DNA from: Candidatus Thorarchaeota archaeon
Lineage (GTDB): Archaea > Asgardarchaeota > Thorarchaeia > Thorarchaeales > Thorarchaeaceae
Direction of reading: 5' to 3'
Assembly (NCBI GenBank): GCA_048884785.1
Contig: JBHLQM010000004.1
Coordinates: 32,001-96,000, forward strand
DNA: 64,000 nucleotides
In this document: one piece after another, positions 1 to 14,729 of the stretch
Position numbering within the stretch: position 1 is the stretch's first letter
How the letters are laid out: each line of letters starts with the position of its first letter
The notes under the pieces: generated by a model
Seen by the model: the letters and a program-made list of their open reading frames with translations, nothing else
Database searches by the model: none
Told to the model about the DNA's origin: nothing
Made by a program: the position numbers and the translations under genes

Positions 1-542
1 TCCTCAAGAAACTTGGAGAAGATATCTGATGACTCGGTGTCTAAACCCGAGTACGGCTCATCTAGAAGATAGAGTTCAGGCTCATGGATGGTACTTCTAA
101 TAATATCAAATCTTTTCCTTAGACCTGTTGAGAGATTCTTTGTTGGCTCATCAAGCCATGTTTTAACATCAAACCTTTTTGCCAGCTCCTCTGCCCTTGT
201 ATCAACTTGGTCCTTCTCAAGGCCGTATAGCTTGCCAAAGAAATGTAGATTCTCCCGACTCGATAATTCCGGATAAAGGAGCGGTTTATCGCCAACAAGT
301 CCAATGTGTCCCCTAACTGGAACAGGATCTTCATCAGGGTCCATTCCCAATACCAGAATACTGCCACCATGGGGTTTCAAAAGAGTGGAGATGATTCGCA
401 TAAGAGTTGTCTTTCCTGCTCCATTGGCACCAAATAGGCCGTGGATACCTTTCCTTTCTATGGCGAATGATACTTTCTTCAAGGCAACCCGGTATCCATA
501 TCTTCGTGTCAGGTCTTTTGCCTCAACTGCATAATTACTCAT
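1..542 (-). CDS. ABC transporter ATP-binding protein, CcmA-like (3' end runs off the window)
   Basis: My own translation from ATG at 542 reads MSNYAVEAKDLTRRYGYRVALKKVSF...GANGAGKTT (Walker A)...LYPELSSRENLHFF...LSTGLRKR (signature)...LLDEPYSGLD (Walker B). A GGTGA RBS lies upstream. The ORF track misses it because it is truncated by the window edge. Confidence 0.9.
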   Translation of the reverse strand, partial: MSNYAVEAKDLTRRYGYRVALKKVSFAIERKGIHGLFGANGAGKTTLMRIISTLLKPHGGSILVLGMDPDEDPVPVRGHIGLVGDKPLLYPELSSRENLHFFGKLYGLEKDQVDTRAEELAKRFDVKTWLDEPTKNLSTGLRKRFDIIRSTIHEPELYLLDEPYSGLDTESSDIFSKFLE

Positions 543-602
543 GGCGGTCACCTTGTTGACGAACTTCTAGAACTCACTGATTCTCTTTTGAGTGTGACGG
601 GT

Positions 603-999: not shown

Positions 1000-1920
1000 G
1001 TGTCGATGACAATCGCACTGACTTTCACAACTACTGCTGGGGACAATGATCAGGATTTACCACTTGATCAAAGAGAAGTGGAACGAATAAAGGTCACTTT
1101 CTCAGAAAATGTTGAAAAAATCAACCTAAGTAGAAAGGATATAGTACACATCGACCTGAGTCCACTAAGTTCGTGTGCTAACCTTAAAAATCTCAGTTTA
1201 GATGGAAATCTGCTTCGAGAAATTGATCTGACACCACTCAGCTCATGTACTGCTTTCGAGATTCTAAATTTGGAACACAATCTGTTTCAGACTATTGATC
1301 TCACTCCTCTCAGTTCTTGCGTTTGCATTAAGGAGCTTTTTCTTGATCGAAACAAACTCAAGAGAATCGATCTCACACCTCTAATTTCATTTAGTAATCT
1401 TCAAAAGCTTACGTTGGGTGAGAACCAGCTTCAGAACATTGATCTCTCGCCTCTACGTTCATGCACTAAACTTAATTGGATATATTTAGCAAAAAACCAG
1501 TTTGAGATTATTGATATATCTTCTCTGAGTTCATGTACTGAGTTACAGTATCTCAATCTGGGAAGTAACCAATTAGAGAGCATTGACCTTACTCCACTCA
1601 GTAATTGCACCTCTCTTCAAGATCTCGAATTAGGATACAATCAGCTTCAAAAGATAGATCTCACTCCTCTCAGTTCTTGTACAAGTCTTCAAGAGCTCTG
1701 GTTGGAAGAAAATCAACTTCAGGAGATAGATCTCACTCCTCTCAGTTCCTGTGTAGACCTTGTCTTTCTCAATTTGAAAGGGAATTCTCTTGAAAGCATT
1801 GATCTCACTCCATTAGGATTTTGCGCAAATCTTCAAGAAGTCAACTTATCTAAGAATAGACTCAAAACCGTAGATTGCTCTCCTCTTCACTCTGATGAAA
1901 TTGTAATACTTATCGACTGA
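1000..1920 (+). CDS. leucine-rich repeat protein (about 11 x 22-aa repeats)
   Basis: Repeats of consensus LxxLxLxxNxLxxIDLTPLSSCxx. GGAGG lies before the GTG start. Confidence 0.93.
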   Translation: MSMTIALTFTTTAGDNDQDLPLDQREVERIKVTFSENVEKINLSRKDIVHIDLSPLSSCANLKNLSLDGNLLREIDLTPLSSCTAFEILNLEHNLFQTIDLTPLSSCVCIKELFLDRNKLKRIDLTPLISFSNLQKLTLGENQLQNIDLSPLRSCTKLNWIYLAKNQFEIIDISSLSSCTELQYLNLGSNQLESIDLTPLSNCTSLQDLELGYNQLQKIDLTPLSSCTSLQELWLEENQLQEIDLTPLSSCVDLVFLNLKGNSLESIDLTPLGFCANLQEVNLSKNRLKTVDCSPLHSDEIVILID

Positions 1921-2298: not shown

Positions 2299-4035
2299 CT
2301 AATGGAATATTTTTCTTCCCAGTCTAAGGAATGGTCCGCCGATTGTCAGCACGAAGGTTATGGGTATCCAGTTTATGATTTCTATCGCTGCAACCCCAAT
2401 AATCAATCCAATGCCAAAGGCCAGTATTGCACTAGTTAGGTCAGTCACAATTATCCAGGGGACATATGCTGAAATGACGTCACCAACAAGGATTCCTGCA
2501 ATCCAAAGCACCAGAGGAACTGCAATTGCTGCAATGACAAGGATCAGGATATTGAAACGGAACGAGAGCTGGATAGGTCCAGGAAAGACTTTCGATGGAT
2601 TCATCATTCTTTTTGGGTCCGTTTTGCCCTTGACACGTGCCATACCAGCATATTCATGCTTTCCATAATATGACCTGGAATGGGCTACATTCCACATTCC
2701 AATAGAATATGCTCTTCCGCCATCACGCAAGCCCAAATTGATGAAGTCCAGAGATCTATACCACCCCATTAGGAATGATATCTTCTTTCTCTCATCATCT
2801 AGAAACCATGCAAGAACCGCCACTTCTCCTTCATCTGTCACAGCACCCTCGAAAGCATATTTTTCACCCTTGAAATGCTTGTCAGCACGTTCAATGAATG
2901 AAACCATATTCTTCAAAGGCACATAGACTTCAGATGGAGCCAAGCTCGGTCCGAGACGCTTGATTCTCATTGGATAGAATCTCTCAGCCCATTCATGTTC
3001 CCCAATGTGTTCCGGTTCAACAAATCCGAAGTTATCCTTAACCACTTGTTTGAATACAGTTTCTTCGAAAGCAGTGTCGCTCTCAGACCCCTCAAATGCA
3101 CAAAGAATCACCCATTTGGAGCTGGTTTCAGGGGCCAATCCGACATCATGCAACATATCATAGAACCCGTCTGTTATGAAATGCAGATAGAAGGGATTCG
3201 TCTTGTTCATGAGATCTTGCATCGCCCATATCATCTGTTCTTTTGTCTTGAAGGAAGCCACAAGAGGACGGATTGTCTGGAGTCTCATGATTTTTAGTAC
3301 GACCTTGGTTATGACGCCTAGTGTACCATTGCTATCTACAAAGAGAGAAGTTGCATCCATCTCATGTTCGTCCACCTCTCCAACTGCCCATTGATACTCA
3401 TCTTCAGCGGGGAAGAATCTGTAATCTTCTCCGGAATAGGTTTCGATGAAAGACTGTGGCGGATTCGCTGTGCGAATGATCTCCCCATCTGGGAGCACTA
3501 CTTCTAGGTCAACAACCTGGTCTCTCACGCCGCCGTACTTAGTGCTGCCAATTCCAGTGCCTCCAGCTGCAACCCATCCTCCAACAGTGCTCGATGGAGC
3601 GCTTGAGGGATATGCCCGAACCGTCAAGCCTTCATCCTCCAGCTCCTCCAGCAATTTGCCCCAGATAATTCCAGCACCTACCTCAACAGTCATGTTGCCT
3701 AGATTGATGTTATGGATTTGATTCATCCTTGTCATTTCAATTGCCAGTCCACCCTTAGTAGGCAAGGCGCCTCCGTATCCGCTAGTGCCATGTCCTCGGG
3801 GGATGATTGGTATCTTTTCTTTCAAGCAATACTTCAGAAGATTCGATACAACCTCTGAGCTCATGGGTTGTGCTACTGCGTCAACCTCTGTTTTTAGTAG
3901 GTCATTGACCAATCCAGGAAGTGCCCCTACATCATGTGAGTAGAGCTTTCTCATATATTCCTCCGAAGAGAAGAAATCCTCACCAACTATGTCTGCAAGT
4001 TGCCTAATCTGTATCTCCCTTAGCATCTTAACCAC
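2299..4035 (-). CDS. FAD-binding oxidoreductase (VAO/PCMH, GlcD/D-LDH-like fold) with C-terminal transmembrane extension
   Basis: PRGHGTSGYGG, PSSAPSSTVGGW, GSTKYG, GTLGVITK and DPKRMMNPSK motifs, then 2-3 hydrophobic helices. Confidence 0.9.
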   Translation of the reverse strand: MVKMLREIQIRQLADIVGEDFFSSEEYMRKLYSHDVGALPGLVNDLLKTEVDAVAQPMSSEVVSNLLKYCLKEKIPIIPRGHGTSGYGGALPTKGGLAIEMTRMNQIHNINLGNMTVEVGAGIIWGKLLEELEDEGLTVRAYPSSAPSSTVGGWVAAGGTGIGSTKYGGVRDQVVDLEVVLPDGEIIRTANPPQSFIETYSGEDYRFFPAEDEYQWAVGEVDEHEMDATSLFVDSNGTLGVITKVVLKIMRLQTIRPLVASFKTKEQMIWAMQDLMNKTNPFYLHFITDGFYDMLHDVGLAPETSSKWVILCAFEGSESDTAFEETVFKQVVKDNFGFVEPEHIGEHEWAERFYPMRIKRLGPSLAPSEVYVPLKNMVSFIERADKHFKGEKYAFEGAVTDEGEVAVLAWFLDDERKKISFLMGWYRSLDFINLGLRDGGRAYSIGMWNVAHSRSYYGKHEYAGMARVKGKTDPKRMMNPSKVFPGPIQLSFRFNILILVIAAIAVPLVLWIAGILVGDVISAYVPWIIVTDLTSAILAFGIGLIIGVAAIEIINWIPITFVLTIGGPFLRLGRKIFH

Positions 4036-4038
4036 CTG

Positions 4039-5220
4039 TTAAAGTCCCAGTGCTTCCACGACAATCTGAGATAGGTCCTTGAATTCAATCTTGGAACTCA
4101 TGCTCTCGATACCATCCATGAATGACATGGTACACGATGGGCACTCGCTGGCCAAGACATCTGCTTCAACTCTCTCAGCAGCTTTAATTCTGCGTTCTGA
4201 TATACGGACTGACATGAGTGGGTTTGTTCCCTTTAGCAGTCCACCTCCACCGCAACAGTCTGCTTTATTCCTTGTGTGTTTCATCTCAATGAGTTTTAAT
4301 CCAGGAATTGCGTTGAGAACTTCTCGAGAGTCGTTGTAGATATTTTGATGACGGCCGAGTTCACATGGATCATGCCAAGCTACTGAGTGATTGAATTCTT
4401 TTTCAAACTTCAATTTTCCTTCTCTGAGCATCCGTGCTGCGAACTGGGAGAATGAAAGAAACTCTATTCCCTGTGTTGATTCTTTCCCGAGCATGTGTGG
4501 ATATTCCTCACTGAATGCTCGATGACAGCCAGGACAGTTGAACACCACTGTTTTTACCCCTAGTCTGCGAAGCTCACTTAGGTGGTGTTCTGCAAGCTCT
4601 CTGGCTTTATCCCACTCACCTCCTACGAAGTAGGGATTTCCACAGCAATACTCTTCTTGCCCAAGAATCGTGAATTCGATACCGAGGTGATCAAAGAGCT
4701 TCATTGTATTTTCACCGAGCGATGCTAGAGTGCCTTTGAAGGATATATTACATCCTGCGAAATATGCGACCTCGGCCGAAACGCCAATTCTACCTTCAGT
4801 TAGGTCGTCAACCATATCTGTCCAAAGGGTTCTATCCTCTTGATCGAGGTCCATTATGTTCCTGCTGTTCTGGATAGAAGTATCCAGGAATTTAACAATC
4901 TCTGGCCATTCGCCGAGCTGATTGATTTCATGTCGAATCTGTTGCCAGAATCTAAGCAGAGGAATATTTGTCTGACATATCTCCTGACAGGCACCACACA
5001 AAGTGCATTTGAAAATCCTATCTGCGAAATCTGGTGGAATGGACTTATTCTTCAGCAAGAGCTCCCGAAGCTGATATAGTTTGCCTCTCGGAGATTGTGA
5101 ATCCCATAATGTGTCGTTGTAAGCTGGGCATACAAAGGTGCAGAACCCGCACCTTGCACAGACAAGAGGCTCGACATCAAGAGCCTCTTTCCTCAGCTTT
5201 TCAAAGGTCTTAGTTCCCAT
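4039..5220 (-). CDS. (Fe-S)-binding protein, GlcF/HdrD family (2x4Fe-4S plus two CCG domains)
   Basis: CARCGFCTFVCP, CTLCGACQEICQ, YCCG...CPGC, HDPC...CCGG...CPSC. Confidence 0.93.
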   Translation of the reverse strand: MGTKTFEKLRKEALDVEPLVCARCGFCTFVCPAYNDTLWDSQSPRGKLYQLRELLLKNKSIPPDFADRIFKCTLCGACQEICQTNIPLLRFWQQIRHEINQLGEWPEIVKFLDTSIQNSRNIMDLDQEDRTLWTDMVDDLTEGRIGVSAEVAYFAGCNISFKGTLASLGENTMKLFDHLGIEFTILGQEEYCCGNPYFVGGEWDKARELAEHHLSELRRLGVKTVVFNCPGCHRAFSEEYPHMLGKESTQGIEFLSFSQFAARMLREGKLKFEKEFNHSVAWHDPCELGRHQNIYNDSREVLNAIPGLKLIEMKHTRNKADCCGGGGLLKGTNPLMSVRISERRIKAAERVEADVLASECPSCTMSFMDGIESMSSKIEFKDLSQIVVEALGL

Positions 5221-5233
5221 TGGTAATCTCCTC

Positions 5234-5731
5234 TTATGGCCACGGTAATCCGAGCCAATCTAGTATCGGCTCGAGAATGGATGTATTATAGACTGCAATG
5301 CCGCCCATGGCACCCATGATCATCATCAGGGCACCGCCTACGATTACTAGTATTCCATAGATTAAGAAACCTGAAGTTGTATCCCAGACTCTATCACCAA
5401 GCTTAGCTCTGATGAAAATTAGGAAAACATAGATTTGCATTGTAACTGCAGACCAAAGTATCTTAAATCTCATGTATGGATTATCAAGCAGTGCTTCCAT
5501 TGGCCAGTCCATGAATCCTGTCACTGCTCCAGCTATCAATCCGAGAAATCCGATTATACTTCCCCAGTAGATGAAGATATCAAATTCATGGAAGATCTTC
5601 GCCATTCGAGTTCCAGGTGTCCTGATTCCTTCTCTGAATACAAGCCTCATAATGAGGCTGCATATTGCCAGAACTGCTGCCGCTGTTAGTATTCCAGTGT
5701 GGAAGTGTACAAATACGGGATGTAATGCCAT
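5234..5731 (-). CDS. DUF2231-family 4-TM membrane protein (possible heme b binder)
   Basis: N-terminal LHPVFVHF motif, four TM helices and a C-terminal GAMGGIAVY. Confidence 0.75.
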   Translation of the reverse strand: MALHPVFVHFHTGILTAAAVLAICSLIMRLVFREGIRTPGTRMAKIFHEFDIFIYWGSIIGFLGLIAGAVTGFMDWPMEALLDNPYMRFKILWSAVTMQIYVFLIFIRAKLGDRVWDTTSGFLIYGILVIVGGALMMIMGAMGGIAVYNTSILEPILDWLGLPWP

Positions 5732-5741
5732 TTGATATCAC

Positions 5742-6344
5742 CTACTTTGTCCTCTTAACCATAATGACTGCAAAAGCAATCATAATGACTGCAACAATCG
5801 GATTGATGATGTACATCAACATAGTCCATGTTTCTACTGGATCAACCGTTGTTGGTGTTGTGGGTGTCGTTGGTGTAGTAAAGGTTGTAGCTGTGTTTTC
5901 TGCAACATCAACGTTCACGAGCAGATTTGCAGACAAACTACTTGCGGCGGCAATCCAGATTTCAATTGTATATGTACCCGCCGCTATTGGTGTTACGATT
6001 AGATCGAATGCAATCTCCCCTTCAGCAACATCTGTGTCGTCTGCTGAATCATCTTGCACCTCGAGTACTGAGAAAAGGAACTGATCATTATTAGACCACG
6101 AGCTGACAATCTTTAGATAATCAACTCCATTTGATCCATCGATTGTGAGCGTGAACGGAACACCTACCATTGCATCAACAGTTCCTGTTGCATTAGAAGC
6201 AAGTGTCAATACACTAGTGTTCGTATGGCAATCTGCACATTGAGCATTTTGTGCTGGATATGCCAATGCCATAGAAGCACTGGCTACAAATAGTGCCAGA
6301 AAACCTGTTACGAGAAGTACTCGTTTGGCAAGCTTTAGTTTCAT
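5742..6344 (-). CDS. exported membrane-anchored protein with a single CxxCH motif (putative c-type cytochrome, Reeler/choice-of-anchor-V-like beta domain)
   Basis: Likely start MKLKLAK at 6344 with an AGGAG RBS. Signal peptide ends ALA-YP, followed by CADCH, a Thr/Pro linker, and a C-terminal TM with a KRTK tail. Confidence 0.75.
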   Translation of the reverse strand: MKLKLAKRVLLVTGFLALFVASASMALAYPAQNAQCADCHTNTSVLTLASNATGTVDAMVGVPFTLTIDGSNGVDYLKIVSSWSNNDQFLFSVLEVQDDSADDTDVAEGEIAFDLIVTPIAAGTYTIEIWIAAASSLSANLLVNVDVAENTATTFTTPTTPTTPTTVDPVETWTMLMYIINPIVAVIMIAFAVIMVKRTK

Positions 6345-6469
6345 TTTTGGAGCTCCTGATAACTTTGGGATTCGACATAAGCTCAATAATTGAGTGATAT
6401 ATCGATGTCTGCGTTTCGTTTCGAAATCAAATTTGGGTATTTTAGGGTATCGGAATAAAACCACCGAAG

Positions 6470-8191
6470 TCACTTCAGACGTAGCAGTCTGCTAAATCCG
6501 CGTAGTAATGGTATTCCGAGCTTCAACGCTGTGGATAATGAAAGTATGCGAATGAACAAAAATCCTATGATACCACCTAAAATTCCTAGAAAGAATGCAA
6601 TGGGCAATGGAATCGAAGGTATAATTGGATTCCAAAGCAGAGTAGATAGCCATGTCCAGCCAAGAAATTGAGGACCGAATGCTTGGAGAATAACTAGAAC
6701 CGCAAATCCTGATAAAAAGCCAAAAGCTAGAGACTCCTTTGCAGCCTTCACTCTCCCCCCAAAAACCTTAGTCGGATTTACTAGATTTTCTGGGTCGATG
6801 GAGCGCTTTGCACTTTTCAATTTTCGTAGATAGGGTGTCCCGTAAAACTCGTCTGCAAAGGGTACATTCCATAAGGCCACTGCATAGGGCTTTCCTCCAT
6901 GAGTTTTTGCAAGCCTTGCCAAATCGAATGATCTGTACCAACCCAGAGTGTAGGCAATCTTCTTGCGTTCGTCATCAAGTATCCAGACCAAGAAAGATGC
7001 CGCTCCATCTCTGGATATTGTGCCTTCAATTGCTGCATTAGAATTCCTAAGAGCTTTACTTGTGTCCTCAAACATTTCAGGAATGGATTTCAATGGGAGG
7101 ATTGCCTCAGCAGGCACTAGGCTTGGTCCGAGGCTTTTGATCCTGAGAGGGTACAGACGTTCTCGCCAGTAAAACTGACTTCTATTATTGTCTAGCAGAA
7201 TTCCATTATGAGCTTCAACGATGCTTTCAATCTTCTCAACAGCATCCTCAACCTCATACACGATATCCAGTAGAGCCCCTGAGAGTATGAACTTTCCAAA
7301 CTCTGCTTTTCTGATTCGAAGAGATAGTAATTTGGATGAATAGGTATCGGTAAGATATCGAAGATGATAGGGATTCACTTTAGCAGTGATCTCAGCCGCA
7401 GCGGCAACCATGCTAGAAATATCTTCAAATGAGCACGCGAATGATCTAAACATGAGTTTTGGGATTAATCGCAGAGTGACTTTTGTGATGAATCCAAACA
7501 CACCATATGTCTCCATGAAGAGTTGATGGGGATCGATATCTTTTGTATCATCATCTTGCCCAAGTTTAGCATTTAGCCAATCCATTCCTCTTTCTGAATC
7601 CTCGGCAAGTTGGTCTTCTCCACTAAGTACAACCTTCCCAGTTCGTGCAAGCAGTCCGTTAGGAAGCACTACCTCAATCCCTACAACTTGGTCCTTAATG
7701 TTGCCATATTTGGCAGAACCGATTCCGACCCCACCACTAGCAACAAAGCCCCCAACTGTTGCAGCAGCTGCACTCGAAGGATACACCGGAAGTGTCAGTC
7801 CAACCCGTTCGAGGAACATCAGCAACTCTCGCCAAGTTATACCTGCTTCAACTGTTACAAGTAAGTTGTATTCATCAATATGCAGTATCTTTGCCATCTG
7901 AAGCATACTTATGCAAACTCCACCCTTTGTGGGCAATGTCCCTCCCCATCCTGATGTTCCGCTACCCCGTGGAACAACGGGTATCTTTTGCCCCTGCAGG
8001 TATTCGATTAGGTGCATAAGGGATTTTACTGTGACAGGTTGAATGACTAAATCGAACTGACCTGAGATTATTTGATTTGCCATGGGTGGCAGACTCGAAA
8101 TGTCCTTTGCATACAATGTTCTTGATTCAGCATCAGTGGTCACATTATCTGCACCCACAATATCCTCAATCTTCTGAACATTGATTTTCAC
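6470..8191 (-). CDS. FAD-binding oxidoreductase (VAO/PCMH) with C-terminal TM extension, paralog 2
   Basis: PRGSGTSGWGG, PSSAAAATVGG, DPENLVNPTK and a hydrophobic tail. Confidence 0.9.
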   Translation of the reverse strand: MKINVQKIEDIVGADNVTTDAESRTLYAKDISSLPPMANQIISGQFDLVIQPVTVKSLMHLIEYLQGQKIPVVPRGSGTSGWGGTLPTKGGVCISMLQMAKILHIDEYNLLVTVEAGITWRELLMFLERVGLTLPVYPSSAAAATVGGFVASGGVGIGSAKYGNIKDQVVGIEVVLPNGLLARTGKVVLSGEDQLAEDSERGMDWLNAKLGQDDDTKDIDPHQLFMETYGVFGFITKVTLRLIPKLMFRSFACSFEDISSMVAAAAEITAKVNPYHLRYLTDTYSSKLLSLRIRKAEFGKFILSGALLDIVYEVEDAVEKIESIVEAHNGILLDNNRSQFYWRERLYPLRIKSLGPSLVPAEAILPLKSIPEMFEDTSKALRNSNAAIEGTISRDGAASFLVWILDDERKKIAYTLGWYRSFDLARLAKTHGGKPYAVALWNVPFADEFYGTPYLRKLKSAKRSIDPENLVNPTKVFGGRVKAAKESLAFGFLSGFAVLVILQAFGPQFLGWTWLSTLLWNPIIPSIPLPIAFFLGILGGIIGFLFIRILSLSTALKLGIPLLRGFSRLLRLK

Positions 8192-9423
8192 GAAGGCGAA
8201 CCCCCCTTTGTTTCATCGAGTGCCTCGGCAACCAGTTCTGATATGCTTTGAACCTGTATTGAATAGTTCATTGTTTGCGTTGCTACATCAAGCGCCTGTA
8301 TGCATCTTGGGCATTCTGTTATTACACGGGATGCAGGCATAATAGAAATGTCTCGAAGCCGCATTTCAGAGATCTGCGATGAAAGTAAAGGGTCTGCAAT
8401 ATTCAGAAGTCCGTGTGTTCCACAGCACCTCGTGTCCTCCTTTGAGTGCAGCATGTCGATATTATACACTCCAGGAATCCTATCAATCACCTCTCTAGGT
8501 TCCTGTATAATCTTCAATGCTCTTGAGGAAATGCACGGATCATGATAGGTCACAGTGATATTGGGCAAATCTCTATAATTCAAAAGTTTCTCGGAATTAA
8601 GTTTCTTGATGAATTGAGAGAGTGTTAAGAGTTCGAATTCACGCTGAAGAGGTACCTTCCAAGATTGGGTGAATGTTATTGGCCAATGGTTTATGCATGA
8701 TGGACAACTAAACACAATTCTCTCAACACCAAGCTCTCTCATCATTGTCAGGTTCTTCTCTCCAAATTCTGGAGCATCATCACGGTTTCCTCCCCATATG
8801 AGGGGCGCGCCACAGCATACTTCTTTCTCACCAAGTAATGTATAATCGATACCTGCATGCTCCATTATTCTGATAACCGATTGAGTCATGCCCTGAAGTC
8901 TTGGTTTCAGGGAAGCGTTACACCCTATGAAGAATGCGGTCTTCGATGGACTCTCAATCCTATCTTTAATATCAATATCTAGGCCTTCTGCCCACAACAT
9001 CCTCGAAGGTGGTCCCATCGAGAACGGGTCTCCGTACTTGAGTACCGATTTACAGGTAAACGCTATAGAGGGTGGTACCAATCCTTCTTTCCACGCAATA
9101 CCTCTCATCAATTCCCAAAATCTATCCAATCTAAGGCTTGTTGTGCAAATTGAAGAGCAATGTTCGCAAAGAGAGCAAAGAAAGAGGTTCCTTACGTATT
9201 CTTCATCAAATCTCTTCTTGCCCTCGAGCACAAGCTTGGTAGTTTGAAGTCTTCCTCGAGGACCATATGCCTCCCAACGAAGCTGTCTGAATGTAGGACA
9301 GACCATTGTGCAATTACCACACGAAGCGCAGATGTATGGATCTGTTTCATGTCCTGTCCCTTCGAGATTTTTCAGACGACTCATCATTGGTCCTCTTCGA
9401 TTGTATCTAGCTATAAGCACCAA
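8188..9423 (-). CDS. (Fe-S)-binding CCG protein, GlcF/HdrD family, paralog 2
   Basis: CASCGNCTMVCP, CSLCEHCSSICT, CCG and HDPC motifs. The true start is probably the MMSRL Met near 9387. Confidence 0.92.
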   Translation of the reverse strand: MVLIARYNRRGPMMSRLKNLEGTGHETDPYICASCGNCTMVCPTFRQLRWEAYGPRGRLQTTKLVLEGKKRFDEEYVRNLFLCSLCEHCSSICTTSLRLDRFWELMRGIAWKEGLVPPSIAFTCKSVLKYGDPFSMGPPSRMLWAEGLDIDIKDRIESPSKTAFFIGCNASLKPRLQGMTQSVIRIMEHAGIDYTLLGEKEVCCGAPLIWGGNRDDAPEFGEKNLTMMRELGVERIVFSCPSCINHWPITFTQSWKVPLQREFELLTLSQFIKKLNSEKLLNYRDLPNITVTYHDPCISSRALKIIQEPREVIDRIPGVYNIDMLHSKEDTRCCGTHGLLNIADPLLSSQISEMRLRDISIMPASRVITECPRCIQALDVATQTMNYSIQVQSISELVAEALDETKGGSPS

Positions 9424-9441
9424 GTGTTAGTGTGGAATCTT

Positions 9442-9474
9442 TTGTCGGTGGCAGCTGCTATCTACCACCGACAA
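9442..9474. terminator. intergenic hairpin inside the redox locus
   Basis: TTGTCGGTGG (9442-9451) pairs with CCACCGACAA (9465-9474), just after the desaturase-like gene. Confidence 0.6.
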
Positions 9475-9494
9475 TCTATTTTTTTTGGTCGCAA

Positions 9495-10823
9495 TTAAGC
9501 ATAGTCTTGGGTCATTTCCTGAGCACAGGCAATTCCAGACTTGGATGCAGCTTCCATAGAGGCATAATAATGGCCGCAATTGGCATATGCGCCAGCAACA
9601 TAGAGCCCTTTAACTCCGGTGCGGTTGGTCTTGAGCCTCTGAGACATTATTCCAGGTGGTTGTGAGAGCACGGACCTCCAAATCTTCCAGCTCTTCTTCC
9701 AAGTTATCTTTTCTTCAATTCCTGGAATCAGAGTCTTTAGCTCATTCAGGATTTCACGTGTTGCCTCACTATCATCCATCTTTAGTAGATCTTCATCAAT
9801 TGACGTCACAGTAAGTAGTGATTCTCCAATCGGTGCCAAGACCCCTGAAACACGTTTCGCTTCAGCCATTATGTGGATTTTCTTTCCAGGAATAAAGCCG
9901 CCCACATTGAAGTCAAGCACACGTGAGGAAAGACCAAAGTATGCCACAATGGACGGGCGGTACGAAAACTTCCTGACTGCAGATGTGAAGTCACTCGGAA
10001 GCTTGTTCATTTCAACAAAATTCGGAAGCAGATCAATGGGGGTCGTGACAACAACTGCATCGGCATCAACAGTATAGTCTTTACCTTCTTGTTCATACTC
10101 AAGCCCCACAACTTTCCCATCGTCTATGATAACCTGCTTTACTGCACAGTTAACTTTTGGTTCAATGGCGAAATTTCGAGCCTGAAGCATTAGTGTATAT
10201 GGAACACTTCCCAATCCACCTCTTTCAGGATACATTGCTTGAAATCCATCTTCGTAGGCAAACCTCAGTTGCTCCGAGTATAGGTATTGACCAGCAGAAA
10301 CTTGGTCGGGCTTCATGAAAGTGACAGTTCTAATAAGCGGGTCATAGAAATTCTCTTGTATGGACTCTGGGATATGATCCTCTGCATACTCTGAAAATGT
10401 CATCTTATCCAACTCCAAGAAATTCTCCTGAGTTCGTTTGAGGTTTTCCTGAACCAGCCGTCCCAGTGTGACACGTTCAGTTGGTCCTACAAGCCCAAAT
10501 TTGGCAAGATCAACGACCGATTTCCGTATCATATGTTTCTCGCCAGCCTTTAGCCACACTGCTCCTTCTCCTACGACCGTCATGCGGACTCCGCTGCGCT
10601 CAAGTATCGGTATAAGAGACTTGAAACCACCTACAAAGAAGTGAAGTCCTTGGTCAAAGACATACCCCGATTCTGTAAAAGATCTGGCACGACCCCCTAC
10701 AGTCGGTTCCTTCTCAAGGATTGTACATCTGGCTTTCAGCCCTTTTAGCTCAAGTGCACAGCTAAATCCAGCGATGCCTGCTCCTACGATTACAACCCTT
10801 GGTGCCTTTCTTGTGTCGCTCAT
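9495..10823 (-). CDS. FAD-dependent oxidoreductase, amino-oxidase superfamily (HpnE / phytoene or zeta-carotene desaturase-like)
   Basis: VGAGIAG, LEKEPTVGGRARS, FDQGLHFFVG and the C-terminal LYVAGAY...ASMEAASKSG. Confidence 0.82.
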   Translation of the reverse strand: MSDTRKAPRVVIVGAGIAGFSCALELKGLKARCTILEKEPTVGGRARSFTESGYVFDQGLHFFVGGFKSLIPILERSGVRMTVVGEGAVWLKAGEKHMIRKSVVDLAKFGLVGPTERVTLGRLVQENLKRTQENFLELDKMTFSEYAEDHIPESIQENFYDPLIRTVTFMKPDQVSAGQYLYSEQLRFAYEDGFQAMYPERGGLGSVPYTLMLQARNFAIEPKVNCAVKQVIIDDGKVVGLEYEQEGKDYTVDADAVVVTTPIDLLPNFVEMNKLPSDFTSAVRKFSYRPSIVAYFGLSSRVLDFNVGGFIPGKKIHIMAEAKRVSGVLAPIGESLLTVTSIDEDLLKMDDSEATREILNELKTLIPGIEEKITWKKSWKIWRSVLSQPPGIMSQRLKTNRTGVKGLYVAGAYANCGHYYASMEAASKSGIACAQEMTQDYA

Positions 10824-10855
10824 TGATGTTTCCTCGGTTTATTTCATTACTATAT

Positions 10856-11980
10856 TCACTCGCCGACTAATGACGATTGCGCAAGGTCAAGAATCAATTC
10901 GTCGAGTTGAATTACTTCCAGATTCGTATCCCGTGCACAATAGCTGAGATTCTTGAAACAGGATATGCATGTGGTTATAATTCCATCCACTCCTATCTCA
11001 ACAGCTTCAGCCACTCTGTTCTTTCCAATTGACTCTGCAAGATCTGGGTCTATTACACTCACAAAACCCCCGCAACAATTTGAGTTCTCTCGATTGTTTG
11101 GGAGTTCTGTAAATTCAAGCCCAGGAATCGCGTTGATAATGGTTCTAGGTGGCTCATAAATACCCAACGCTCTACCAAGATGGCAAGAATCGTGGAATGT
11201 GTATGACCCCTCTTTTCCTTTAAAGGTAAGTACACCATTGTTTACCATATCTGCAAGAACTTCCACAGTATGATGGATTTTGATGTCAAAATTCTCTATC
11301 ACATGAGGATAATGTTCAGCAAGAGTCCCAAAGCATCCACCACATCCAGTAATTATGTGATCAACTCCTGCTTTCTTGAACATTGAATAGTTCTTTCTGA
11401 TGATGGATTCAAATCCCTCATCATCTCCCGCCCAGTAGTTCATGAGACCACAGCATACTTCGCTGGGAACGTATCCAACATTGACCTTGAGTTTCTGCAT
11501 CATATCTACAACCATCTCAGGTTGATCTGGATACCAGAATGAACCCATGCATCCTGAGAATATTGCCGTGTTGGATTCGGGAGGAAGCTCGAGGTCTTCA
11601 GCCCACACTGTCCTTTCATCTGCCTCAAACCCAACGAAGGGCGTTCCTTCTTTTTTCAGCCATTCGAGCACCTTCATTAGCCCCTCTGATAAGGACCCGC
11701 CTGTTCCTAGAAGATTAGCTTTTGCATCATGCCAAATTGTCGTAACCGGAACTCCAGCAGGACAAATCGCTTCACACCGCCGGCAATCCGCGCAATAGAG
11801 TCTGTTTAAGAGTTCCTGAGGCGGCTTCCTCATCTTCTCAGCATATGCCCTAAGAGCTCTGATCTTCCCTCCAGGACTATCAAGTTCAGAACCAAGTTGC
11901 TTGTACATGGGACAGAAGTCCCGACAGTAATTACATGAGCCACAATGTCTTAGTACATCGGTCTTGAGGTCTACCTTCAT
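10856..11980 (-). CDS. (Fe-S)-binding CCG protein, GlcF/HdrD family, paralog 3
   Basis: CGSCNYCRDFCP, CADCRRCEAICP, CCG...CGGC, HDSC...CCGG...CISC. Confidence 0.92.
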   Translation of the reverse strand: MKVDLKTDVLRHCGSCNYCRDFCPMYKQLGSELDSPGGKIRALRAYAEKMRKPPQELLNRLYCADCRRCEAICPAGVPVTTIWHDAKANLLGTGGSLSEGLMKVLEWLKKEGTPFVGFEADERTVWAEDLELPPESNTAIFSGCMGSFWYPDQPEMVVDMMQKLKVNVGYVPSEVCCGLMNYWAGDDEGFESIIRKNYSMFKKAGVDHIITGCGGCFGTLAEHYPHVIENFDIKIHHTVEVLADMVNNGVLTFKGKEGSYTFHDSCHLGRALGIYEPPRTIINAIPGLEFTELPNNRENSNCCGGFVSVIDPDLAESIGKNRVAEAVEIGVDGIITTCISCFKNLSYCARDTNLEVIQLDELILDLAQSSLVGE

Positions 11981-11986
11981 TTATTT

Positions 11987-13501
11987 TCACCTCGCTACAA
12001 ACTTGCCAAGCCGCCTGAAGGCAGCAGCAAGAACAAACAGAACGTTCATCCTTCCATATGATGTCATGCAGGTGGTTATTCTGTCTGGATTCATAATGTT
12101 TCTCGCGTCCAGAGACGCCTTTCTTTCCTTCATCACGGATTGTCTCTCTGGATATGCCCGTTTCATGTATATTGAATTCTGAAGACCTATGGTATAAGGT
12201 CCTCCTCCTCGTTTGATCGCCCTTTTCATCATTTTATGCAGGATTCCTTTGCTTGAAATGAATTCAAGATATTTGTCAGGATTCAGCATTGCCATAAGTT
12301 CAAGTCGCATCATGCTTGATGTACCAAGCATCCCAAACCATATAGCTGGTACCTTGTGTGTCTTCTTGGTCTTTTCATAGGCTTTCAGGAGGTCGTAGAC
12401 ATGTTCAACACTCACCCAGAGTTCCTGAAACATCAGAGTATGGCAATGCTCCTTTGGATTGAACTCACAATCAAAACGTAGGTCCCATTCCTTCGCTGAA
12501 TACTCGTTTCCGAGGAATGTCCCTCCGCTTTCAGAGACGATTTGTTCGATCTCACTGAGAGGTGCCTTGGAGCTGTTCTCTACATATGAAACCGTTAGAA
12601 CATATCTTCCCTTCTCGAGTGGATTGCTGAAGCTCTGGAAAGGTTGGTCTGCTATCTTGAGATACAGTGGTTTTTGAGTAGTTCCTGAAATACCCCTCAT
12701 GGCGTTACATACATGCTCCAGGTAGGCAAAGCCATAACTCAGGGTGTTGATTCTTGGTGCCAATGGTCGTATCCTAAGCGTTGCTTCAACGATTACGCCC
12801 AAAATACCATACGAAGCATTGTAGATATCGATATCTTCCCCCTCTATTATCGAGATGGATCCGTCAGGCAAAACAACCTTTAGTTGAATGATATTGTCCT
12901 TGAGAGTGCCATATAACGGGGTTCCGATTCCGGCCTTTCCTCCGCACCCGATCCAGCCGCCAACTACGGCTGACTTTGCACTCGAAGGATATATCCCTAG
13001 TTCAAAATTTTGCTTTGCCAATGCTTCGTCAAGAGCAGTGAATGTGACTCCTGGCTCAATAGTGACGGTTCCTTCCTTTGGATTTATTTCAAGAATCCTA
13101 TTCATCCTCTTCAAATCCAAGGAGATTCCTCCCCTTGATGGGCTTGAGGAACCCAGACAACTGGAGGCGCCTCCCCGCGGGATTACTGGAATCTTATGCG
13201 CACTGGCAATTTCTATGATTTCTCTCACATGGTCTGTTGTTTCAACTCGTACTACATAATCTGCTAGATACCTCAACTTCCATCGGTAATGGAACTGTGG
13301 AAGAGCTGCTGGATCTCCACTATAGACAATTCTCTCTAGCTCCATATCTGAGGCGTTTGTGAAACCCACAACACCAGCTAGTTTCTTGAGAATCAGCTCT
13401 TTCTCTGATACTTTGCTGGTCGGAACATCAATGAGTTGCTCTTGGGCCTGTGTTTGTTGAGTTGTACTTTCGTTTTCTTCAGCCATTTTATCACATCCCA
13501 A
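11987..13501 (-). CDS. FAD-binding oxidoreductase (VAO/PCMH), paralog 3, without the long TM tail
   Basis: PRGGASSCLG, PSSAKSAVVGGW, YGILGVIVEA and DARNIMNPDR. Confidence 0.9.
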   Translation of the reverse strand: MGCDKMAEENESTTQQTQAQEQLIDVPTSKVSEKELILKKLAGVVGFTNASDMELERIVYSGDPAALPQFHYRWKLRYLADYVVRVETTDHVREIIEIASAHKIPVIPRGGASSCLGSSSPSRGGISLDLKRMNRILEINPKEGTVTIEPGVTFTALDEALAKQNFELGIYPSSAKSAVVGGWIGCGGKAGIGTPLYGTLKDNIIQLKVVLPDGSISIIEGEDIDIYNASYGILGVIVEATLRIRPLAPRINTLSYGFAYLEHVCNAMRGISGTTQKPLYLKIADQPFQSFSNPLEKGRYVLTVSYVENSSKAPLSEIEQIVSESGGTFLGNEYSAKEWDLRFDCEFNPKEHCHTLMFQELWVSVEHVYDLLKAYEKTKKTHKVPAIWFGMLGTSSMMRLELMAMLNPDKYLEFISSKGILHKMMKRAIKRGGGPYTIGLQNSIYMKRAYPERQSVMKERKASLDARNIMNPDRITTCMTSYGRMNVLFVLAAAFRRLGKFVAR

Positions 13502-14729
13502 AGAAGATACCCAGGAACATACCCGTCATTCCCAAAATTGTCCACAAAACCACGGCAGGCAATCCAAGATTGCATGTTTTCCAGCCTGCTATATGAGTGA
13601 GAAAGGCCAACGTACCCAAAATCATACTCACTATTCCAAGCCAAATATGCCAGGAATGAATAAACAATGTCAGATTGGCTACACTGATCAGATATGCAGG
13701 ATTCATGGCGGTCCATGTTGAGGGATCTTCTTGGAAAAGCCAAATGACGTTGATGCTTGTCAGGATATAGGCTATACTGAGCATTATTCCATGCATTCGT
13801 GTGAATCGTTCTTCATCGTAATATTCCAGAGCCGTACCAATATAGGCAATAACCAACGCAGGTCCTCCAAGAAGCCAGCCATAATGCATTTGTGGTAGCG
13901 GTTCAGGTGGGAAATTGCCAACAATGTATTCTTCTTCCCAAGAAACGGATTCAACTCCATCTGTGTCAATTGCTACAATTCTAAAAACGATGTAAGTATA
14001 CAATGGAAATTCGGGAATTGTACCAACATAGTATCCATTACTTAGAGTCATCGATTGATTTGTCCATGTCGATCTATTATCAGTGCTATACTGCAGTTTG
14101 ACCTCACTGATGCCAACCTCGGAGGTTACATTTGTTCGGACTGCGACTGACTCGGTATCAAGAGGAATCAATGGTGTAGCATTGATTAACAGGATTGCAG
14201 GTCCTGCTCCTGGAGGTGGAAGAACAGTTACAGCAATTTGGATACTTATTCCATTAGGTATACCCTGCACCCCAAAAGCCTGAAGTGTATAGGACCCGGG
14301 AGAGGTTGGGGCTGTAATTGTATAATTGACTTCTACTTGGTCAGTATCGGCATCCATATCTGCCGCATCTCCATCATTAACTGTACCCTCAGATCCGAGC
14401 GAACCATAGGTGAACTCGGCATTATCCCCAACTGCTGAGGGAAACTTCAGGGTGAGAGCATTCTCTCCTGTCACACCAACGACTTGAATAACAATGCTAA
14501 AGCTTGCCTCAGTTTCTACGCTTATTGCAGTGGTGGATGCAGAAACACTCATCCCTGATGAGCTATCATGACAAGGGGATGCAGTGCATGCATCGTTTCG
14601 ACTAGGGTATGCCAAAGCTGAACCCGCAAGTAGAACCAAAACAAGAGTAATCGAAGTAATAAGAATTCCATATCGGACTTGCTTCTTCACATTTTTCACC
14701 CGGTTTATGTGGAGACTGTTTGCCAACAA
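13491..14729 (-). CDS. exported CX4CH domain + Ig-like domain + cytochrome b561-like 4-TM domain fusion
   Basis: Signal peptide ends ALA-YP, followed by CTASPCH. The N-domain is paralogous to 5742-6344. The C-terminal TMs carry MHYG, MHG and HSWHIWLG. The start codon is uncertain. Confidence 0.7.
   Translation of the reverse strand: MLANSLHINRVKNVKKQVRYGILITSITLVLVLLAGSALAYPSRNDACTASPCHDSSSGMSVSASTTAISVETEASFSIVIQVVGVTGENALTLKFPSAVGDNAEFTYGSLGSEGTVNDGDAADMDADTDQVEVNYTITAPTSPGSYTLQAFGVQGIPNGISIQIAVTVLPPPGAGPAILLINATPLIPLDTESVAVRTNVTSEVGISEVKLQYSTDNRSTWTNQSMTLSNGYYVGTIPEFPLYTYIVFRIVAIDTDGVESVSWEEEYIVGNFPPEPLPQMHYGWLLGGPALVIAYIGTALEYYDEERFTRMHGIMLSIAYILTSINVIWLFQEDPSTWTAMNPAYLISVANLTLFIHSWHIWLGIVSMILGTLAFLTHIAGWKTCNLGLPAVVLWTILGMTGMFLGIFFGM

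Follow-up and report, generated by a model that had tools for sequence, protein, structure and literature searches.

Several membrane complexes combine a cytoplasmic HdrD-type CCG iron-sulfur protein with a heme b subunit to form a transmembrane redox complex. These include TmcABCD, HmcABCDEF, and DsrMKJOP of sulfate reducers and HdrDE of Methanosarcina, and the Tmc, Hmc, and Dsr complexes add a periplasmic c-type cytochrome. In Listeria, a locus for flavin-based extracellular electron transfer encodes DmkA/DmkB, EetA/B, and PplA, with flavin carried on the surface protein. In EtfD, electrons pass from CCG clusters through two [4Fe-4S] clusters and a bis-His heme b in the membrane to menaquinone (PMC13083937). 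HdrD/GlcD pairs have been predicted in Bathyarchaeia, Methanomethylicia, and Korarchaeia, and the archaeal HdrD/GlcD unit was proposed to link the oxidation of lactate with heterodisulfide reduction (PMC10667645). EtfD, HdrDE, the Tmc/Hmc/Dsr complexes, and these predicted pairs are the closest known systems to a ten-gene block found in the window, the whole 64,000-nucleotide stretch of Thorarchaeota DNA that was analyzed. The block probably carries electrons between the inside of the cell and its surface, and no paper describes this block of Thor-type Asgard archaea.

The ten-gene block and its flavin and iron-sulfur proteins

Open reading frames and domain searches place ten genes, co-oriented on the minus strand, at positions 2299-14729 of the window. 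They encode three GlcD/LDHD-like FAD proteins, three HdrD/GlcF-type CCG proteins, one phytoene-desaturase-like flavoprotein, two homologous exported CXnCH proteins of Ig fold (P0001 and P0002), and a DUF2231-like protein with four transmembrane (TM) helices (P0003). The transcription order is P0001, FAD-3, CCG-3, the desaturase-like gene, a hairpin, CCG-2, FAD-2, a gap, P0002, P0003, CCG-1, and FAD-1. The initial annotation had given this co-oriented order with its hairpin and gap, and the sequence, translations, and domain searches bear it out throughout.

13491..14690, minus strand: P0001, with signal peptide, CX4CH, two Ig-like domains, and a C-terminal 4-TM His-rich domain; the real start is the GTG at 14690
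11987..13501, minus strand: FAD-3, VAO/PCMH-type, GlcD/LDHD fold, without a TM tail (Pfam FAD_binding_4 3.7e-37 plus FAD-oxidase_C)
10856..11980, minus strand: CCG-3, HdrD/GlcF-type Fe-S protein (Pfam CCG 1.9e-32; cysteine map)
9495..10823, minus strand: amine-oxidase-superfamily flavoprotein of the PDS/HpnE type (Pfam Amino_oxidase 9e-38)
9442..9474, minus strand: hairpin 3' of the desaturase-like gene, a perfect 10-bp inverted repeat read from the sequence
8188..9423, minus strand: CCG-2, HdrD/GlcF-type Fe-S protein (Pfam CCG 8.4e-31; cysteine map)
6470..8191, minus strand: FAD-2, GlcD/LDHD fold, C-terminal TM tail (Pfam, translation, hydropathy)
6464..6478, minus strand: stem resembling a terminator, with a T-run after it, where FAD-2 ends and the gap of about 125 nt opens
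5742..6344, minus strand: P0002, with signal peptide, CADCH, one Ig-like domain, Thr/Pro linker, and C-terminal TM anchor
5234..5731, minus strand: P0003, 4-TM DUF2231-like protein with invariant H4, H9, H11, and H48 (alignment A2)
4039..5220, minus strand: CCG-1, HdrD/GlcF-type Fe-S protein (Pfam CCG 6.3e-36)
2299..4035, minus strand: FAD-1, GlcD/LDHD fold, C-terminal TM tail (Pfam, translation, hydropathy)
3..551, minus strand: ccmA (3' end outside the window), the first of the ccmABCE genes that lie downstream of the block in relatives

Signal peptides are absent from the FAD and CCG proteins. The flavoprotein profile (A4) matches LDHD over its full length (2.4e-59), and the metal and catalytic residues (HxGDGNxH and GEHG; His/His/Glu-His) are replaced in all four FAD paralogue groups. 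Judged from their sequences, the FAD proteins have a remodeled active site without the catalytic residues for 2-hydroxyacids. The C-terminal tails of FAD-1 and FAD-2, seen in translation and hydropathy, were missed in the initial annotation. The cysteine map of each CCG protein holds two CX2CX2CX3C motifs and two full C...CCG...CXXC motifs, and all 18 Cys residues of CCG-1 are invariant in alignment A3. The closest solved relative of CCG-1 is EtfD (PDB 9ojn, 1.4e-30). Matches to TmcB, HmcF, and DsrK range from 3.8e-31 to 2.8e-16, every one under the family cut-off, and that of CCG-1 to TmcB (3.8e-31) extends over the full length. The earlier remark that CCG/FAD proteins are not usually paired with exported cytochromes had overlooked the TmcABCD, HmcABCDEF, and DsrMKJOP complexes.

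The best-conserved genes of the block are those encoding the desaturase-like protein and CCG-3, the latter showing 75-89% identity across Thorarchaeota. The desaturase-like gene is present in single copy in the genome, and its product matches HpnE (5e-34, under the HpnE cut-off) and, as the best PDB match, plant phytoene desaturase (5mog, 1.4e-14). A word-seeded search gave 64 relatives at E<=1e-20, all at least 71% identical; those with names were all Asgard and mostly Thorarchaeota.

Exported CXnCH proteins, membrane subunits, and heme supply

P0001 and P0002 are homologous in their N-terminal regions (BLASTP 7e-10) and carry the motifs CTASPCH (CX4CH) and CADCH, respectively, in both proteins exactly 7 residues past the predicted signal cleavage site. 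The C, C, and H residues are invariant among 25 P0001 orthologues (alignment A1) with a Cys spacing of 2 to 5 residues, and C-Xn-CH with n = 2, 4, or 5 is kept in 26 of 26 P0002 orthologues. P0001 and P0002 are probable surface heme proteins. The orthologue alignment contains no invariant Met or His as a distal ligand in the ectodomain. In more distant relatives the motif is CXCH or only one CH. Note that variable CX2-5CH spacing, CXCH, and a lone CH are unusual for substrates of the Ccm system. An N-domain of the same kind also heads a 1330-aa Ig/PKD surface protein.

The AF2 model of P0001 (pLDDT 78) gave fold matches to Ig/FN3 and to a generic four-helix bundle. The invariant His residues of its membrane domain lie at the outer ends (H282 on TM1, H358 and H361 on TM3) and at the inner ends (H313 on TM2, H379 on TM3) of the helices, and only H282, H313, and H361 among them are kept in the wider P0001 family. 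In P0003, three of the invariant His residues are on one side of the membrane and one is on the opposite side. With three His residues kept in the wider P0001 family and the 3:1 arrangement in P0003, two bis-His hemes per subunit are not assured. The P0003 model (pLDDT 87) weakly resembles STEAP, NOX5, CcsBA, and CcmC in fold; the fold matches of the membrane domains are to generic four-helix bundles only (Z 11-12, within helical-protein noise). P0003 itself, labeled DUF2231 in the initial annotation, scores 15.2 bits against a Pfam threshold of 26.4 for that family; 14 of 24 P0003 orthologues match it at E<=0.01. The "b561-like" label is not supported: the domain has four helices rather than six, Pfam b561 gave E=7.5 on a paralogue, and the fold matches are to generic four-helix bundles.

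The genome encodes a Ccm system and, beside it in the same island, a heptaheme cytochrome (7xCxxCH) with a signal peptide and C-terminal anchor. HemB is absent from all 40 near-complete family genomes and AhbA/B were not found in this genome, and thus heme would have to be imported.

Conservation of the block and its linkage to ccm genes

All 14 complete Thorarchaeota loci have the same ten-gene order and no partial locus departs from it, and thus the block is not a chance arrangement. A lack of synteny in related genomes, which the initial annotation had named as evidence against its conduit, was not observed: the heme-type proteins are strictly syntenic with the FAD/CCG pairs in every related locus. 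In 17 loci, ccmABCE is directly downstream of the block and co-directional with it. Moreover, full-length P0001 and CcmE were compared across the 40 family genomes with a completeness of at least 90%; the two agree in 38, with 16 genomes having both and 22 having neither.

Five other loci were examined, one on a GC-52% metagenome contig and four from other Asgard families (about 30-35% identity). The triad [(C)CH-Ig-4TM, FAD, CCG] was found in all five, with the CCG gene undetected in one, and ccm genes are near the triad in three. The roughly 15-20 kb fetched around each of the five gave no match to the desaturase-like protein, and the stretches fetched for the three loci with ccm gave none to the heptaheme cytochrome of this genome. 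At least nine relatives have a fourth FAD+CCG pair, headed by a 136-aa protein that is a copy of the P0001 membrane domain standing alone, and pairs headed by such a domain are also found on contigs C11 and C95 of this genome. Contrary to the initial annotation, the modules are not strictly triplicated: many relatives have a fourth in-line module, and contig C11 of this genome has more.

A proposed electron path, its alternatives, and described systems

On balance, we lean to the view that the block is a modular membrane-bound system transferring electrons from cytoplasmic metabolism to the cell surface. In each module a cytoplasmic VAO/PCMH-type flavoprotein of GlcD/LDHD fold, with its remodeled active site, would oxidize a presumed substrate and reduce an HdrD/GlcF-type subunit predicted to have a pair of [4Fe-4S] ferredoxin sites as well as two complete CCG sites. 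The FAD/CCG pair would attach to the membrane either through the flavoprotein TM tail plus the DUF2231-like 4-TM protein or through the His-rich 4-TM domain of P0001. The membrane subunit, which probably carries heme b, would pass electrons to a single covalent heme on the N-terminal CXnCH arm of the Ig-fold ectodomain (fused in P0001, a separate anchored protein in P0002). With the neighboring Ccm system and anchored heptaheme cytochrome, reducing equivalents would thereby reach the cell surface. A conduit of this kind had been proposed in the initial annotation. Synteny, the downstream and co-occurring ccmABCE, the anchored heptaheme cytochrome, and the triad in other Asgard lineages speak for it, whereas its b561 component is not supported. 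A prenylated lipid carrier in the membrane may serve as an intermediate, as suggested by a MenA-like prenyltransferase and the EtfD precedent (PMC13083937).

Such a carrier could instead be the end point, the modules being substrate:lipid-carrier oxidoreductases of the kind of EtfD, GlcDEF, GlpABC, and the archaeal type-E succinate dehydrogenase that deliver electrons to a prenylated quinone-like pool, with the CXnCH proteins and multiheme cytochrome forming a separate pool-reoxidizing branch rather than a direct protein wire. We consider this unlikely. Consistent with it, the MenA-like prenyltransferase scores above the TIGR00751 cut-off and adjoins a polyprenyl synthase within the paralogous FAD/CCG cluster on C11; its gene is found in 36 of 40 family genomes, and in at least seven it is on one contig with the island or with the ccm genes of the island (about 4-40 kb away in the five cases measured). 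Moreover, heme b adjoins the menaquinone site in EtfD, and the clade of the desaturase-like protein acts on isoprenoids and uses quinones. However, no quinone head-group pathway was found in this MAG (91% complete), MqnA/D and MqnC being absent and MenB matches falling under the cut-off. Nearly all genomes of the family carry the MenA-like gene, whereas the island has a patchy distribution, and the fusion of a CXnCH ectodomain to four TM helices across Asgard lineages argues for a direct link. The same prenyl genes on C11, the strong conservation of the PDS/HpnE-like enzyme and CCG-3, and flavoproteins that lack 2-hydroxyacid residues and in two cases have membrane tails would also fit a biosynthetic block, in which the desaturase-like protein and flavin/Fe-S pairs modify a lipid or cofactor of the isoprenoid type, with the heme proteins serving only as acceptors of the released electrons. 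That is the least probable of the readings weighed here, as the five other triad loci show no desaturase-like match in the DNA fetched, and energy metabolism is the better fit for three or four paralogous dehydrogenase modules accompanied by Ccm and a heptaheme cytochrome.

Inward flow is improbable. As in HdrDE and DsrMK, electrons from the surface or the flavoproteins would be used at the complete CCG sites to reduce a disulfide in the cytoplasm. Each of the three proteins has both CCG motifs complete, like HdrB/HdrD, HdrB matches are present, and an HdrD/GlcD unit has been discussed (PMC10667645). However, the quinone-linked GlpC, GlcF, and TfrB also have complete CCG motifs and score equally well or better, and nothing in this analysis indicates the direction of flow. 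Use of the CoM-S-S-CoB heterodisulfide is not known in Thorarchaeota. It is distinctly improbable that the CXnCH/CH Ig proteins are not cytochromes but surface proteins that bear metals or disulfides, with the four TM helices as mere anchors and the ccm link due solely to the neighboring multiheme cytochrome. The variable or reduced motif (CX2-5CH, CXCH, single CH), the lack of HemB in the family and of a conserved distal ligand, and the occurrence of the N-domain on the Ig/PKD surface protein are consistent with that interpretation. Against it stand the C, C, and H residues, which are invariant and always equally far from the cleavage site in the 25 P0001 and 26 P0002 orthologues, the three triad loci with ccm genes and no heptaheme cytochrome match in the stretch fetched, and the P0001/CcmE agreement in 38 of 40 genomes.

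Each of the closest described systems shares some features with the block and differs from it in others. The Listeria locus likewise places a dedicated MenA-like prenyltransferase and polyprenyl synthase beside small membrane proteins and an electron-exporting surface redox protein, but there is no homology save the prenyl enzymes, which here are on another contig (C11), and the Listeria cofactor is flavin, not heme. Compared with the Tmc, Hmc, Dsr, and HdrDE complexes, the membrane subunit is not of the NarI/DsrM type, a GlcD-like flavoprotein is an integral partner, and the host is an Asgard archaeon with no heme synthesis detected; moreover, the candidate outer cytochrome is a single-motif Ig-fold protein, not the cytochrome c3 or DsrJ of Tmc, Hmc, and Dsr. 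EtfD of mycobacteria (9ojn) takes electrons from a flavoprotein and has two [4Fe-4S] sites and two CCG domains wired to a bis-His heme b, which lies in a small membrane domain made of helices (PMC13083937); a similar layout is predicted for the block. In contrast to the block, EtfD is one polypeptide with five TM helices, whereas the membrane part here is a separate gene or an ectodomain fusion; its first CCG domain holds a linear [3Fe-4S] cluster, whereas both CCG motifs are complete here; and it has no exported cytochrome and takes electrons from ETF, whereas the donor here is GlcD-like. The predicted HdrD/GlcD pairs and bacterial GlcDEF, LDHD, and LctD likewise have an FAD_binding_4/FAD-oxidase_C gene beside an Fer4+CCG gene, but in the block HxGDGNxH and GEHG are replaced, two flavoproteins are TM-tailed, and every module is accompanied by a His-rich 4-TM protein and an exported CXnCH protein.

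Gene content and conservation of the island

Every long ORF between window positions 2299 and 14729 lies on the minus strand (the window is C4:32001-96000 of a 3.6-Mb Thorarchaeota MAG, 91% complete). Pfam and NCBIfam searches identified three FAD_binding_4/FAD-oxidase_C proteins (FAD-1, FAD-2, and FAD-3), three proteins that each carry a 4Fe-4S dicluster domain and two CCG domains (CCG-1, CCG-2, and CCG-3), and a single amine-oxidase-superfamily flavoprotein having HpnE and phytoene desaturase as its nearest relatives (the desaturase-like protein). The three remaining proteins, P0001, P0002, and P0003, matched no Pfam family significantly. The gene order is P0001, FAD-3, CCG-3, desaturase-like, CCG-2, FAD-2, P0002, P0003, CCG-1, and FAD-1. 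The domain searches, the translations, and the sequence itself thus agree with the initial annotation in genes, order, hairpin, and gap. The noncoding features and the gene that follows FAD-1 are as follows.

Features within and beside the ten-gene block
9442-9474, hairpin with a perfect 10-bp stem, 3' of the desaturase-like gene
3' of FAD-2, terminator-like stem followed by a gap of about 125 nt
1000-1920, plus strand, leucine-rich-repeat gene between FAD-1 and ccmA, on the strand opposite to the block

Beyond the leucine-rich-repeat gene comes ccmA, followed on the contig upstream of the window (C4:14001-34000) by ccmB, ccmC, ccmE, an FMN reductase gene, ccmF, and genes encoding proteins of 734 and 460 residues. 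The 734-residue protein has a signal peptide and a C-terminal hydrophobic stretch with a basic tail and belongs to no Pfam family, and the 460-residue protein has a signal peptide, seven CxxCH motifs, and a C-terminal anchor. Just upstream of P0001 (14937-17980, minus strand) are encoded a TPR-repeat protein and an ADP-forming acyl-CoA synthetase-like protein (CoA_binding plus Succ_CoA_lig); the related loci as fetched reach about 1 kb upstream of P0001.

A scan for the P0003 family using one genome per prokaryote species gave 31 loci, nearly all from named Thorarchaeota. The supposition that the putative heme proteins travel with the FAD/CCG pairs was borne out, in that every related locus of sufficient length contains the identical ten genes in the identical order. 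In 17 loci ccmABCE follows FAD-1 in the same direction, and in about nine of these a fourth module (a 136-residue membrane protein, a flavoprotein, and a CCG protein) precedes ccmABCE. The position of the FMN reductase gene between ccmE and ccmF is also kept in relatives. The leucine-rich-repeat gene was found at none of the related loci, where either ccmA or the fourth module comes directly after FAD-1. The 136-residue paralogue P0238 corresponds to the P0001 membrane domain on its own (35-37% identity), and therefore the modules fall into two types.

Module types
Type A, CCG protein plus a flavoprotein with a transmembrane tail, once preceded by P0002 and P0003
Type B, His-rich four-TM domain, either free or fused to a CXnCH ectodomain, plus a flavoprotein and a CCG protein

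Three short contigs (C95, C92, and C102) carry a second, diverged part-copy of the island at 60-88% identity. Its block genes encode P0002-like and DUF2231-like proteins, CCG-1, FAD-1, a 136-residue four-TM protein, FAD-4, and CCG-4, and it further contains ccmABCE, an FMN reductase gene, a gene for a cytochrome with six CxxCH motifs, and ccmF. This copy could be a paralogue of the island or stem from a second strain binned together with the first (the estimated contamination of the MAG is 5.4%).

Full-length P0001 is confined to part of one Thorarchaeota family (five genera, about 37 genomes). Among the 40 genomes of this family that are at least 90% complete, 16 encode both P0001 and CcmE, one only P0001, one only CcmE, and 22 neither. 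As the genomes are interrelated this co-occurrence is not a statistical test, but it does show that, to judge from gene content, the block and Ccm have been gained and lost together. When on one contig, the P0001 and CcmE genes share a strand and are separated by 14-27 kb.

A search of 1.84 billion proteins with a CXnCH-Ig profile returned 298 cluster representatives of about 200 to over 1200 residues, and in matches that cover the profile start the domain is N-terminal. A common distant form, of about 295 residues, joins a single Ig domain to a P0001-type four-TM domain that keeps H282, H313, and H361. On a metagenome contig of 52% GC this form is followed by genes for a flavoprotein, a CCG protein, and a CcmF-like protein and by ccmA and ccmB. 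At four loci from three other Asgard families (GC 29-33%) the order of (C)CH-Ig-4TM protein, flavoprotein, and CCG protein recurs, the CCG gene being undetected at one locus. The ccm genes are a few kb away at two of these four loci, or at three of five when the metagenome contig is counted. The strongest support for joint action of the membrane/ectodomain protein with the flavoprotein, the CCG protein, and Ccm comes from this independent recurrence. In the distant P0001 relatives of other Asgard families (loci L043-L047; proteins P0351-P0442) CXCH, HxxCH, or a lone CH replaces CXXCH.

Properties of the encoded proteins

P0001 and P0002 are exported proteins having a CXXCH or tolerated CXnCH motif that is invariant in their orthologues, and the same genome encodes a maturation system (CcmA, B, C, E, and F) adjacent to their genes, as expected for c-type cytochromes. 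P0001 consists of a signal peptide, the sequence CTASPCH, two beta-sandwich domains, and four C-terminal helices, whereas P0002 has a signal peptide, CADCH, a single beta-sandwich domain, a Thr/Pro linker, and a C-terminal anchor. Their N-terminal 135 residues are homologous (BLASTP, 7e-10). C48, C53, and H54 are invariant in 25 of 25 P0001 orthologues, the cysteines being separated by two to five residues, and all 26 P0002 orthologues keep C-Xn-CH (n = 2, 4, or 5), with the first cysteine exactly seven residues past the predicted cleavage site. The ectodomain contains no invariant distal ligand. Matches of the N-domain to the NCBIfam family "choice-of-anchor V" (E of 0.0018 and 0.035) fall below the cut-off.

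The P0001 membrane domain keeps H282, H313, H358, H361, and H379 (25 orthologues). The structural model puts H282 and H358/H361 where helices 1 and 3 end on the outer side and H313 and H379 where helices 2 and 3 end on the inner side, an arrangement that could hold hemes near each membrane face. The label of b561-like given to this domain in the initial annotation found no support: the model has four helices versus six with four conserved histidines on helices 2-5, Pfam b561 matched the paralogue P0238 only at E = 7.5 and P0001 not at all, and ascorbate-bound b561 ranked low for P0003. DUF420 was also rejected, as the Atlas value of 0.81 was accompanied by a noise-level Pfam match (E = 0.62) to a paralogue.

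P0003 is a four-helix membrane protein of 165 residues in whose orthologues H4, H9, H11, and H48 are kept. It scores 15.2 bits against DUF2231 (PF09990; gathering threshold, 26.4), 14 of 24 orthologues match that family at E ≤ 0.01 (best, 3.2e-07), and comparison with the DUF2231 clusters of the Atlas gave 0.85 for features and a TM of 0.68 for structure. Its model weakly resembles STEAP, NOX5, and CcsBA in Foldseek (E 0.3-0.5) and Cytochrom_C_asm clusters in the Atlas (TM 0.64-0.66), but all of these likenesses to heme domains are within the helical-bundle background. For both membrane models, Foldseek and VIA searches retrieved nothing beyond generic four-helix bundles and the Cox3 C-terminal bundle (Z 10-12), and therefore no fold is assigned to the membrane domains. 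A "fused versus split" relation holds between P0001 and P0238; the same relation between the P0001 membrane domain and P0003 was ruled out by hhalign, which found no similarity between this domain and the DUF2231-like family (probability 0.2).

The flavoproteins have the FAD_binding_4 plus FAD-oxidase_C fold of GlcD/LDHD-type 2-hydroxyacid dehydrogenases (VAO/PCMH). A profile of 22 flavoproteins from four paralogue groups (A4) matches D-lactate dehydrogenase (LDHD) over its full length (residues 9-474, 2.4e-59) and additionally matches LctD and glycolate oxidase. In all 22 sequences, however, HxGDGNxH, which carries two metal-binding histidines, is replaced by EGAxxDxGxVA, and GEHGxG is replaced by GGRPY-IG. 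No invariant His or Glu occurs at the metal-binding His/His/Glu and catalytic His positions of the 2-hydroxyacid dehydrogenases in these sequences, and of the signature residues only the Arg of the W..R motif is retained. Because both signature stretches are replaced, these are not ordinary 2-hydroxyacid dehydrogenases; the alignment indicates a remodelled active site. At their C-termini, FAD-1 and FAD-2 carry a hydrophobic tail made up of two or three helices.

The three CCG proteins each contain two CX2CX2CX3C motifs and two complete C...CCG...CXXC motifs, as do HdrD/GlcF/GlpC-type proteins, and all 18 cysteines of CCG-1 are invariant over 15 orthologues. The best NCBIfam matches (TfrB, LdhH, TmcB, GlpC, GlcF, HmcF, and DsrK) are all under their curated cut-offs and thus no named orthologue can be assigned. 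The nearest solved structure is mycobacterial EtfD (9ojn, 1.4e-30). A complex prediction for CCG-1 with P0003 scored 0.00, was run with no controls, and counts neither way.

The desaturase-like protein has one copy in the genome. A word-seeded search gave 64 matches at E ≤ 1e-20, all at least 71% identical, of which the named ones are all Asgard and mostly Thorarchaeota. Assignment as protoporphyrinogen oxidase was rejected (38.7 bits versus a cut-off of 97.85, N-terminal part only).

Heme supply and a possible prenylated carrier

HemB (porphobilinogen synthase) was found in none of the 40 family genomes of at least 90% completeness and AhbA/B was not found in this genome, so heme must be imported or the proteins use something else. 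CcmE is nevertheless encoded in 17 of the 40, which suggests that members of the family are heme auxotrophs that would still mature c-type cytochromes. Ccm systems normally require two cysteines, and hence covalent heme on the CXCH, HxxCH, or lone-CH forms would be unusual. Assignment as heme proteins is not secure for the CXnCH-Ig family as a whole.

The main alternative to direct electron transfer from the Fe-S proteins to the outer hemes is that a prenylated carrier could lie between them. By analogy, the CCG/Fe-S chain of EtfD terminates at a heme b beside menaquinone (PMC13083937), and such a carrier could therefore sit before the outer hemes. A MenA-like gene is present in 36 of the 40 family genomes and in at least seven genomes shares a contig with the island or its ccm genes (about 4-40 kb apart in the five measured). 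However, no MqnA/D, MqnC, or true MenB was found in this genome. One MenA-like gene belongs to a paralogous cluster on contig C11.

Genes of the paralogous cluster (C11:21001-40500)
GlcD-like flavoprotein fused to a NuoB-like (Oxidored_q6) domain
1330-residue Ig/PKD surface protein that starts with a CXXCH-Ig domain
CCG protein
Two PNPOx-like proteins
MenA-like prenyltransferase (105 bits versus the TIGR00751 cut-off of 102)
Polyprenyl synthase
Further FAD-1-like gene
Type B module

Implications and relation to known systems

In the usual models, Asgard archaea are fermenters or acetogens that pass their electrons to partners as H2 or formate, and syntrophy models of the origin of eukaryotes build on this view. 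The conserved island, which co-occurs patchily with Ccm, appears from its gene content to link cytoplasmic flavin/Fe-S dehydrogenases to putative surface heme proteins. The island would provide an additional, cytochrome-based path by which electrons are exported or taken up, and would establish the CXnCH-Ig ectodomain and its four-TM partner as two uncharacterised protein families; it also raises the question of the heme source of a lineage that lacks HemB. Returning to direct transfer, a tentative and broader reading, which we consider rather doubtful, is that some Asgard archaea of Thor type and Loki type that lack heme synthesis keep a dedicated electron-export device. This would be a new kind of cytochrome in which a (C)XnCH arm on an Ig fold caps a four-helix, His-rich membrane domain. 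Flavin/Fe-S dehydrogenases would feed this cytochrome directly and an archaeal Ccm system would mature it, as may also be the case for the single-cysteine forms. If true, these supposedly fermentative, syntrophic relatives of eukaryotes would be able to transfer electrons directly to the outside of the cell or to other species.

In the literature on DUF2231, on Thorarchaeota and Asgard cytochromes, and on Asgard GlcD plus HdrD we did not find the system described, and a transporter census (PMC7997004) mentions heme-handling proteins alone, in the proteomes of Asgard lineages other than Thor. In working principle the island seems most like EtfD, HdrDE, and the Tmc/Hmc/Dsr complexes, plus a predicted archaeal HdrD/GlcD pair (PMC10667645). 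It belongs to none of these, because its membrane subunits and outer domain are uncharacterised, its flavoprotein sites are remodelled, and equivalog cut-offs are not reached. TmcABCD, HmcABCDEF, and DsrMKJOP have a NarI/DsrM-type membrane cytochrome b and a multiheme periplasmic cytochrome, whereas the membrane proteins of the island have no Pfam or NCBIfam match and its outer proteins carry a single motif. The resemblance to these three complexes is one of working principle rather than of membership.
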